DNA from: a virus
Virus record (IMG/VR): IMGVR_UViG_3300040856_003829
Span: 1 to 64,000 of that record
Direction: 5' to 3' (one strand)
DNA: 64,000 nucleotides
Position 1 is the stretch's first letter; each line of letters begins with the position of its first letter. This document shows positions 20,356 to 44,126 of the stretch, piece after piece. The translations under genes and the position numbers were made by a program. Under the pieces are notes generated by a model. It searched no databases. It worked only from the letters and a program-made list of their open reading frames with translations, and was not told the DNA's origin.

Positions 20356-20601
20356 AGATCCGCCTCCCTACAACACCTTACTCATATCGTAAGAATATTA
20401 TAGGGACACTTACATTCGTCCAATGTCAAGGAGTTTAGTTCTGTTCAGGGTGACTAAACGCACCCCACTATCTGACGGTAACTTACCAACATACCGACTC
20501 GTGCCGTATGTGTCTGAAATTACTCGTGAGATAGGTTTCCCATCCATGGGCGATTAGACCCTGATGGTAGTTACATGTTGACTAATCTCATGTAACAGCT
20601 T
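20356..20601 (-). ncRNA. Unassigned multi-hairpin structured RNA, about 245 nt, between tRNA-Tyr and tRNA-Lys
   Basis: No ORF of 60 aa or more; helices at 20570-20596, 20468-20534, 20433-20459 and 20365-20406; G-U pairs form only on the minus strand. Confidence 0.6.
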
Positions 20602-20774: not shown

Positions 20775-20819
20775 GTTTTGGTATTGAACTTCAATACCGG
20801 CGTTTTCGAGTCGCCTATG

Positions 20820-20892
20820 AGCCACCAATAGGACTCGAACCTACGACCTGCTGATTACAAATCAGCTGCTCTACCAACTAAGCTATGGTGGC
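20820..20892 (-). tRNA. tRNA-Thr(TGT)
   Basis: GCCACCA/TGGTGGC acceptor, GCTGA-TTTGTAA-TCAGC arm. Confidence 0.95.
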
Positions 20893-20974
20893 ACACTAGT
20901 CTAAGACCTAACGTTGTGCTAATCCGGACCCATTTTAATACGATTGAGTCAACACGCTCACCTCACACGCAACT

Positions 20975-21217
20975 TTAAGATACGTTTGTAAGTCGATTTT
21001 CTAACTTATCCAGTCTTGAATCTATTGTTCTGTAAATTTCAGTGATCTCACCATCAATATTATGTCTAAATGAAGACATCTCATTATCGAAATTTGATGA
21101 ACTAAAATCAAAACTGGTTTGAAAATCTCTGAGTTCTTTCTTTAGTTTGAACACACCAACGACTGAGTATAAAAACCCAACCGATACTATACCCAAAACA
21201 AAATACAAAAATTCCAT
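20975..21217 (-). CDS. Membrane-anchored coiled-coil protein
   Basis: N-terminal TM; C-terminal YRTIDSRLDKLENRL. Confidence 0.7.
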   Translation of the reverse strand: MEFLYFVLGIVSVGFLYSVVGVFKLKKELRDFQTSFDFSSSNFDNEMSSFRHNIDGEITEIYRTIDSRLDKLENRLTNVS

Positions 21218-21242: not shown

Positions 21243-21581
21243 ATGGAGAATTAGGTGAAGAGATAAGTCAGTCTCTTAAGTACGTCCAACTTTATTTTTT
21301 TCAGGTAACATACATCCGGAATACAAGAGAGTTGTTAACTCCGCATATTTCACGTTCATGTCCACTTCACAGGTGTTGGCAAACCTGATTGAAGTTCACT
21401 GAGTCAGACAGTAGACTTTTAGTGTCTCGTACAACTACATTTTTAGAATGCCCACAACAGAAAATAACGCTCGTTATCCCTGAAGCTACAATACTAAATA
21501 TGTATGCCTTATCCCCCTGTCCAAGGGATTATTCAGCAACACCCTCCCGTGCGTGATCAGCGCGGTGGGATTTACCTCCAT
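21243..21581 (-). ncRNA. Unassigned large structured RNA, about 340 nt, immediately 3' of tRNA-Ile(TAT)
   Basis: Terminal helix ATGGAG/CTCCAT; nested long-range helices GGGTG/CACCT and GGCATACAT/ATGTATGTT; several local hairpins; no ORF of 60 aa or more. Confidence 0.6.
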
Positions 21582-21584
21582 TTG

Positions 21585-21658
21585 TAGGGACGGAGGGACT
21601 TGAACCCCCGACCTTGACTATATAAGAGTCCTGCTCTAACCAACTGAGCTACATCCCC
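21585..21658 (-). tRNA. tRNA-Ile(TAT)
   Basis: GGGGATG/CGTCCCT acceptor, (G)GACT-CTTATAT-AGTC(A) arm, canonical D and T arms. Confidence 0.88.
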
Positions 21659-21713: not shown

Positions 21714-21757
21714 TCAAAGAACTGTACAAATATAAGTCAAAATCTTTATTCTACAAA
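21714..21757 (-). promoter_or_regulatory. Bacteroidota sigma70-type promoter plus boxA-like element
   Basis: TTTG (21754-57)-N19-TATATTTG (21727-34), then AGTTCTTTGA. Confidence 0.8.
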
Positions 21758-22370: not shown

Positions 22371-22439
22371 AGGTCAGAAGTGGATTCGAACCACTGTAAA
22401 AGGATTGCGATCCTTCACCTTCCATTCGGACACCTGACC
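22371..22439 (-). tRNA. tRNA-Cys-like gene with an aberrant 6-nt anticodon loop
   Basis: GGTCAGG/TCTGACC acceptor, U discriminator, intact T arm; anticodon arm AAGGA-TCGCAA-TCCTT. Confidence 0.7.
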
Positions 22440-43739: not shown

Positions 43740-43740
43740 G

Positions 43741-44126
43741 TGGAGATGCTGGGCCTCGAACCCAGGTCCTGATTGTCCCAAACAGAAAGGACTACACGTT
43801 TAGGTCATTATTGATTCTCAACAATCCGAAATAGGTGATTGAATTTTTACATCCTCCGTCACCAATAGATGTATGACTCAATTTAGGGTTTAGTCATTTC
43901 TCCACCACAACAACGGACTTCTGTTCATAGGTACATGTCCTGACCGACCCGCTGGATACGTCGCCTTAGGCTGCGTATACCTCTTCAGTACGGATCAAAC
44001 CGAGAGTCTGAAGTTTTGCGAAAGTTTCGCCATTTGTGTTTTGAAACCGTGGATTAAAGTGATAGGTAACCTCTCACTACGTGCCCTTTGTGACTGATGA
44101 CACCAGTCAAATCCATAATCATCCCC
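43741..44126 (-). ncRNA. ssrA: tmRNA
   Basis: 5' GGGGATG..GGATTTGAC; 3' GGTTCGAGGCCCAG-CATCTCCA with G3-U pair; tag frame 44031-43966 encodes (A)GETFAKLQTLGLIRTEEVYAA*. Confidence 0.93.

Follow-up and report, generated by a model that had tools for sequence, protein, structure and literature searches.

We show that positions 21243-21581 (minus strand) of the window, as we term the whole 64,000-nt stretch of viral DNA analysed here, constitute the gene of a structured non-coding RNA of ~340 nt. The gene forms a discrete cassette, measures 339 nt including both strands of a terminal helix (P1), and is supported by full-length homologues and covariation. Based on sequence comparison with Rfam family RF01745, we read this RNA, hereafter the long form, as a divergent, enlarged and previously undescribed relative of manA RNA, which would combine a shared 5' core and closing helix with a larger, different interior and an added P1.

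A non-coding cassette in a phage tRNA array

The window covers the initial 64 kb of a viral contig from IMG/VR that is 96 kb long, and a CheckV completeness of ~32% for this contig indicates a jumbo phage of ~300 kb. Genes of the window phage include those for terminase, portal and major head. ARAGORN predicted 12 tRNAs and a tmRNA in the window, and a 13th tRNA was identified by Rfam only. All genes around the RNA block lie on the minus strand and follow one another, in the direction of transcription, as tRNA-Arg, tRNA-Leu, a 62-aa ORF, tRNA-Ile(UAU) (21584-21658; ARAGORN and Rfam), the 339-nt block, an 80-aa ORF (ORF80; 20975-21217) and tRNA-Thr. The tRNA-Ile gene directly upstream of the RNA does not encode CCA, its discriminator being followed by CAA, and the block begins 3 nt past this discriminator, in agreement with the coordinates and strand that a first-pass annotation of the DNA had given for an RNA directly after tRNA-Ile(UAU). 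GC content is 41.9% in the block and 32.6% in the window. ORF80, a small membrane/coiled-coil protein from a conserved family (relative P0003 is 71% identical), has its start codon 25 nt downstream of the RNA 3' end with no terminator between the two, and is probably co-transcribed with the RNA. A Bacteroidota-type promoter-like motif, TTTG-N19-TAtaTTTG (consensus TTTG-N19-TAnnTTTG), is located 69 nt upstream of tRNA-Ile (21727-21757, minus). This pattern, identified by consensus match only, occurs nine times in the window against 3.9 expected, with three occurrences inside the tRNA cluster holding the RNA.

The extent of the cassette is defined by two relatives, L022 and L023, which were obtained via the neighbouring ORF80. 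Whereas L022 carries the block at ~95-95.6% identity, L023, with flanks ~90% identical, has 14 nt replacing exactly the block, such that ORF80 follows tRNA-Ile almost directly and the indel boundaries coincide with 21243-21581. As the RNA is missing from this close relative, it must be dispensable. A tRNA-Thr cassette (window 20786-20926) is likewise missing from L023; the tRNA arrays of close relatives thus differ by whole cassettes. No paralogue of the RNA was found in the 96-kb record, where it is present as a single copy. When the window is compared with L022, identity is 100% for tRNAs, 95.5-96.3% for the two ORFs and 84-89% for spacers. Only six substitutions and two single-base indels are observed in the first 284 alignment columns of the RNA, with most RNA differences located in an A-rich linker and the 3' tail, and all five substitutions (5/5) in predicted stems retain pairing. 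In total, three 1-nt indels separate the window RNA from the L022 copy and break every short ORF in the block, and no conserved ORF was found in this comparison. The single-sequence minimum free energy of -93.6 kcal/mol is mildly unusual relative to shuffled sequences (z = -2.0), and is unconvincing alone.

Several other features of these arrays were also observed. A 245-nt non-coding block between tRNA-Tyr and tRNA-Lys (window 20356-20601, minus) has no Rfam match, and a non-coding gap of 242 nt with 41% GC occupies the equivalent place in L023 (L023:4460-4701); the window block may be another structured RNA of the tRNA array. At window 22371-22439 (minus), a tRNA-like gene scoring 44.7 bits with Rfam was missed by ARAGORN, which called its L023 counterpart (L023:3107-3176) as a tRNA with a four-base anticodon (cgca); the latter could be a frameshift-suppressor-type or aberrant tRNA. 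The window tmRNA (43740-44126, minus) encodes an unusually long tag, GETFAKLQTLGLIRTEEVYAA, and a near-identical tag, GETIAKLQTLGLVRTEEVYAA, is encoded at L114:14272-14658 in a phage related by terminase (89% identity). Finally, in the tRNA cluster of a near-complete 297-kb relative (G007), tRNA-Arg(UCU) is immediately preceded by a non-coding gap of 312 nt and 46% GC (L112:5465-5776), in which covariance models of the long-form family found no match.

Homologues and the conserved fold

Searches of IMG/VR contigs identified 13 further copies of the RNA which, together with those of the window and L022, represent five diverged lineages of 345-431 nt. A scan with a 19-mer of the 5' hairpin retrieved seven loci in ~150-kb phages (lineage 2), in which the RNA begins 0-3 nt past tRNA-Ile(UAU) and ends 2-3 nt before tRNA-Lys(UUU), filling the 348-352 nt gap between the two tRNAs. 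The invariant 3'-domain motif GUGAACUUCAAU...UGAAGUG retrieved a third lineage (L129, L130 = L135, and L134; 364-381 nt) in phages of 48% GC with no tRNA near the RNA, and a pattern from the 5' module described below retrieved a fifth, L189, of ~431 nt. Homologues share ~65% mean column identity over their full length, with about 80 base pairs kept. A terminase like that of the window phage is absent from all records of the found copies. The phages carrying the RNA thus have unrelated terminase types and differ in GC content, and the RNA behaves like an accessory cassette.

Other searches delimit the distribution of the family. Among GenBank phages, blastn matched the tRNA only and returned no RNA homologue. 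No match was found by DNA or covariance-model (R1/R2) search in 31 phage records related to the window phage by terminase (27) or by ORF80 (4), including two that are near-complete (295-kb). Loci retrieved from IMG/VR with ORF80 lack the RNA, and an ORF80 scan of prokaryote genomes found nothing. An H5 motif scan of 185,579 prokaryote genomes gave 44 matches, all of them chance, and a relaxed H5 pattern gave 86 loci, among which the 68 not seen before comprised a conserved protein-coding motif and chance matches. This protein motif, ...NKYLTAMDFFVNFNINE.FEETIK..., occurs in dozens of viral contigs (L216-L283) and is unrelated to the RNA. A search with the 18-mer CAGGTTTGCCAACACCTG produced only chance hits, and a 32-mer from the module has no exact IMG/VR match, probably because even L022 has an indel there. 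The long-form RNA family is rare.

Covariation was analysed in two domain alignments, comprising 10 sequences for the 5' domain and 11 for the 3' domain. In the 5' domain, 93.1% of cells are paired and 23 of 39 pairs have changed on both sides, a result reached by none of 500 shuffles, with a covariation score of 0.559 against 0.146 for the best register-slid control. The 3' domain likewise shows 92.1% of cells paired and 19 of 31 pairs changed on both sides (1/500 shuffles reach this), scoring 0.487 against 0.226. The small number of independent lineages (five) makes the shuffle controls lenient; the slid controls, in which phylogeny is retained, still score far lower. With compensatory changes at 42 of the 70 pairs tested across both domains, the comparative evidence for a conserved RNA fold is decisive, as read from these alignments.

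From 5' to 3' on the minus strand, the predicted fold consists of the P1 5' strand, hairpin H1, the P2 5' strand, a module (M), H3, a 3' domain containing H5 and H6, hairpin H7, and the 3' strands of P2 and P1. P1 was examined sequence by sequence, as it was misaligned by MAFFT. It forms in every lineage from different sequences, with AUGGAGG/UCUCCAU in the window (21575-21581 with 21243-21249) and AUGAAGG/CCUUCAU, AAAUGAAGGAA/UUCCUUCAUUU, GAAGGAGU/ACUUCUUC, GGUUAGCUGU/ACAGCUAACC and UUGACUGUA/UACAGUCAA elsewhere. In the copy at L125:6717-7067, complementary extra bases at the ends (5' AAAUG, 3' CAUUU) lengthen P1 to ~16 bp, these insertions being themselves a compensatory pair. The upper stem of H1 (21545-21570) covaries (GCG/CGC versus GGA/UCC; 100% paired, two of three pairs compensatory). 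Its loop, CUGAUCA, contains the 6-nt palindrome UGAUCA and is shared by four of the five lineages (UUGAUCA in L134, so that the palindrome is invariant among the four), with UAGCU in the fifth. P2 joins GGGUG (21540-21544) to CACCU (21253-21257), is paired in 100% of cells over 10 sequences with two of five pairs compensatory (GGGUG/CACCU, GGGUA/UACCC, GAGUG/CACUC), and corresponds to the long-range/pseudoknot helix of manA, its 5' strand aligning to the bracketed helix of RF01745.

Module M (21506-21537), arranged as GC-UGAAUAA-[hairpin UCCCUU..GGGGGA]-UAAG-GC, is an internal-loop hairpin between CUGAAUAA and GAUAAGG whose outer and inner stems both covary; it also aligns to RF01745 with high confidence in cmscan. 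It is followed by H3 (21432-21505), a long arm interrupted by bulges and capped by a C(G/A)AGCG loop, in which GUGGGC is invariant and 17 of 26 pairs carry compensatory changes. The 3' domain (21278-21431) is built by covarying long-range helices around H5 (21364-21395), the hairpin bearing the motif that retrieved lineage 3, and H6 (AUGCGG..UUAACA..CUC, within 21278-21431). The terminal hairpin H7 (21258-21277; AAGAGA-CUGACUUA-UCUCUU), in which all six pairs are compensatory (6/6), adjoins the P2 3' strand without a spacer, and the latter is connected by the linker AAU to the P1 3' strand (together 21243-21257), with covariation supporting P2 and the per-sequence check P1. The resemblance of GUACGAGA to a sarcin-ricin loop was rejected, being broken by an insertion in L022.

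Most of the architecture proposed in the first-pass annotation is borne out by this comparison. Pairing of the RNA ends is kept in every lineage despite differing sequences, the helix 21540-44/21253-57 is paired throughout, and the hairpins at 21511-29, 21364-95 and 21258-77 all fall within covarying helices, so that the covariation expected of homologues is present, with register-shifted controls far lower. Conversely, a nested 9-bp helix proposed between 21500-08 and 21307-15 is not conserved: although complementary in the window, it is paired in 64% of cells across homologues, no better than controls, and its 5' strand (21500-08) belongs instead to the local covarying arm H3.

Relationship to manA RNA and manA-type RNAs of tRNA arrays

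No Rfam 15 family matched the window region at gathering threshold. At E<=10, cmscan of the region returned only manA and a chance JPX_1 hit, and no match to RNase P RNA, tmRNA, group I/II introns, known ribozymes or riboswitches, in line with the first-pass annotation, which had noted that signatures of RNase P, group I introns and tmRNA are lacking. The manA hits fall in the same 5' region each time, at 19.5 bits in the window and 14.3 bits in both L022 and L129; L127, L121 and L134 gave no manA hit at E<=10. True manA members from cyanophages score 182-184 bits, and membership of the manA family itself was rejected on score (14-19 bits versus a threshold of 55.2). The first-pass proposal of an uncharacterised class of large non-coding RNA thus stands in part: the family is large, closed, multi-helix, conserved and below Rfam 15 thresholds, but is not wholly uncharacterised, its 5' third being related to manA (RF01745).

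Closer inspection of the alignment supports this relationship in the 5' region. The manA order of 5' hairpin, long-range strand and CUGAAUAA/hairpin/UAAGG module is reproduced, and forms the stretch that cmscan aligns with high confidence. The core of the window RNA, GGGUG-UU-GCUGAAUAA followed by the hairpin and UAAGG, aligns to GGGaG-UG-aCUGAAUAA of manA, and the module is present in all long-form members (as CUGAAU or CAGAAU). The P2 3' strand also follows its terminal hairpin without spacer, as in manA. Beyond the module, the size (~190 nt) and central multi-stem region of manA are not recovered: posterior probabilities are low, manA-type RNAs align poorly to H3, and the long-form sequence profile matches manA-type RNAs over the module only.

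A 19-base module pattern retrieved 27 new viral loci; 26 of these have manA scores of 11-69 bits, and in three cases the score exceeds the threshold. Conversely, a covariance model (R3) built only from the 5' domain of the long-form family scored 67.9 bits for the long form of L189, 42.2 bits for L209 (manA 50.5) and 35.6 bits for L194 (manA 55.5, above the cut-off), although the E-values of these loci look better than they should, the shared module having been used to select them beforehand. L189, L194 and L209 have the H1 loop UAGCU in common, and L194 and L209 appear as intermediates linking manA with the long form. Canonical cyanophage manA RNAs were not detected by R3. Taken together, the recurrent manA hits at one place, the loci retrieved through the module and the R3 hits suggest that the long form belongs with RNAs of the manA kind, rather than being without relatives.

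Examination of the module-derived loci also revealed a recurrent genomic context. At ~19 of the 27 (L187-L213), a short manA-type RNA is encoded within a tRNA array in the orientation of the tRNAs, often fitting closely between two of them, with scores of 25-69 bits on RF01745; two of the three above the cut-off are tRNA-flanked. For example, such RNAs are situated 13 nt past tRNA-Gly and 5 nt before tRNA-Thr (L197:572-743), 12 nt past tRNA-Met (L202:388-562; 60.3 bits) and 2 nt before tRNA-Gly (L206:222-394; 68.7 bits). At least five different tRNA pairings are represented, and many of the loci come from related phages. Canonical cyanophage manA RNAs, by comparison, sit upstream of ORFs, and no mention of a tRNA association was found in the manA literature consulted. 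Most of the short array RNAs score 40-50 bits, just below the 55.2 cut-off, and the current Rfam manA model therefore seems to leave a large, divergent portion of the family undetected.

Proposed biogenesis and function, and comparison with known RNAs

Our best explanation, which we consider probable, is that the block encodes a manA-related structured RNA that is co-transcribed with tRNAs, released by tRNA processing, and acts in trans. The principal alternative is a cis-regulatory leader or riboswitch that senses a ligand or condition and controls a downstream gene (ORF80 in the window), a role first proposed for manA itself (PMC2864571). The 25 nt without a terminator that separate the RNA from the ORF80 start codon would suit such a role, as would the same-strand ORFs starting 12-117 nt downstream in L129, L130, L134 and L189, which belong to the three lineages without a nearby tRNA, and the location of cyanophage manA RNAs upstream of ORFs. 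However, tRNA-Lys comes next in seven copies, 2-3 nt past P1, where a cis role cannot apply, the downstream ORFs are unrelated to one another, and ORF80 is kept, and presumably expressed, in L023 without the RNA. Combined with the finding of no conserved expression platform (neither a terminator nor a start-site-sequestering helix) and a P1 that closes the fold on itself in every lineage, these observations render cis regulation unlikely.

Two further readings concern the nature of the block itself. If it were selfish DNA, such as a MITE-like insertion or the remnant of an intron or homing element, its terminal inverted repeat of 6-7 bp would be a feature of DNA rather than an RNA helix, and both the exact presence/absence polymorphism between close relatives and the occurrence in unrelated phages would be expected. 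Yet the block is present once in the 96-kb record with no target-site duplication at its junction, and it matches no intron, ribozyme or transposon RNA family in Rfam. Moreover, throughout the length of the block, G-U pairing and compensatory change preserve the helices for one strand only, and its position is fixed within 0-3 nt of tRNA ends. A MITE or mobile element was rejected, and an insertion of this kind is very unlikely. Hardly credible at all is a spacer that folds by chance, a decayed tRNA or gene remnant, or a small-peptide gene, despite the modest z-score of the single-sequence fold and short ORFs of 29-55 aa on both strands. Chance folding is contradicted by the covariation data, homologues of ~65% identity keeping ~80 base pairs with 42/70 tested pairs compensatory. 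The peptide gene, also raised in the first-pass annotation as an account of any conservation, was rejected on the frame-breaking indels between near-identical copies. Relaxed ARAGORN calls, considered both for a decayed tRNA and for a permuted tmRNA, proved spurious as they reuse tRNA-Ile, and the permuted tmRNA was likewise rejected.

For the preferred reading, of a trans-acting RNA released from a tRNA transcript, we propose that transcription would begin at the promoter-like site upstream of tRNA-Ile(UAU) and include the RNA as part of a tRNA operon. The 5' end of the RNA would be made by 3' processing of tRNA-Ile and, in lineage 2, the 3' end by RNase P cleavage at tRNA-Lys. With both ends protected by P1, a discrete, stable RNA could then accumulate and act in trans during infection. 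The tRNA gene cluster of phage T4 similarly yields stable non-tRNA species 1 and 2 RNAs of ~120-140 nt that are released by the tRNA-processing machinery; these are comparable to the long form in biogenesis only, with no known relation in sequence or fold.

Once released, the long form may, by analogy, self-assemble like manA, ROOL and GOLLD. A recent preprint reported that manA forms RNA-only decamers and a 60-mer cage in vitro, with closed homo-oligomers assembled from pentamers (bioRxiv 10.64898/2026.07.01.735769). Tentatively, and on thin support, we also hypothesise from this analogy that the H1 loop, with its palindrome UGAUCA, could serve as a two-fold kissing contact; the fifth-lineage loop carries the palindrome AGCU, and only two independent palindromic variants occur among the long forms. 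These comparisons bear on an RNA that has been an orphan riboswitch candidate since 2010 and for which the 2026 preprint now reports a cage in vitro. A larger manA relative with an extra conserved domain and a closing helix provides a natural scaffold variant for structural comparison. Furthermore, the flush packing of both long and short manA-type RNAs against tRNAs is difficult to square with an exclusively cis-regulatory role and matches the genomic habit of ROOL and GOLLD, the other phage RNAs that form cages. The larger relative and its packing among tRNAs thus make a shared biology, namely release by tRNA processing and action in trans during infection, directly testable.

Among known systems, manA RNA (Weinberg et al. 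2010, PMC2864571) appears closest to the long form. Both occur in phages of aquatic or marine-looking metagenomes, and both possess a 5' hairpin, a long-range strand (GGGaG in manA, GGGUG here), a 2-nt spacer and an internal-loop hairpin flanked by CUGAAUAA and UAAGG, with the 3' strand that closes the long-range helix placed directly after a terminal hairpin. In contrast, manA measures ~170-200 nt against 345-431 nt for the long form, which lacks three highly conserved manA bases (CUU after CUGAAUAA) and adds a long H3 arm, the terminal helix P1 and a 3' domain of ~190 nt that has invariant motifs of its own and no manA counterpart.

A second comparison is offered by ROOL and GOLLD, which are nanocage-forming RNAs of phages (PMC12286853). 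Like the long form, they are large, ornate RNAs of phages or prophages, often beside tRNA islands, GOLLD env-38 for example lying downstream of a Met-tRNA (PMC12286853); the long form is itself inside a tRNA cluster and on the same strand as the tRNAs. Searches with the Rfam models of ROOL and GOLLD left the region unmatched at E<=10 and the whole window unmatched at gathering threshold. The long form is smaller than ROOL RNAs, and many GOLLD RNAs exceed 800 nt (PMC12286853); ROOL and GOLLD form RNA-only homo-oligomers, as manA is reported to do. More speculatively, and with a doubtful chance of being correct, manA-type RNAs, the long form included, might represent a third class of tRNA-island RNAs after ROOL and GOLLD. 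Rather than riboswitches, these would be excised by tRNA processing and form RNA-only shells that work together with the tRNAs of the phage and might, for instance, shield or sequester tRNAs or components of translation during infection, and the peripheral helices of the long form would change the geometry of assembly.
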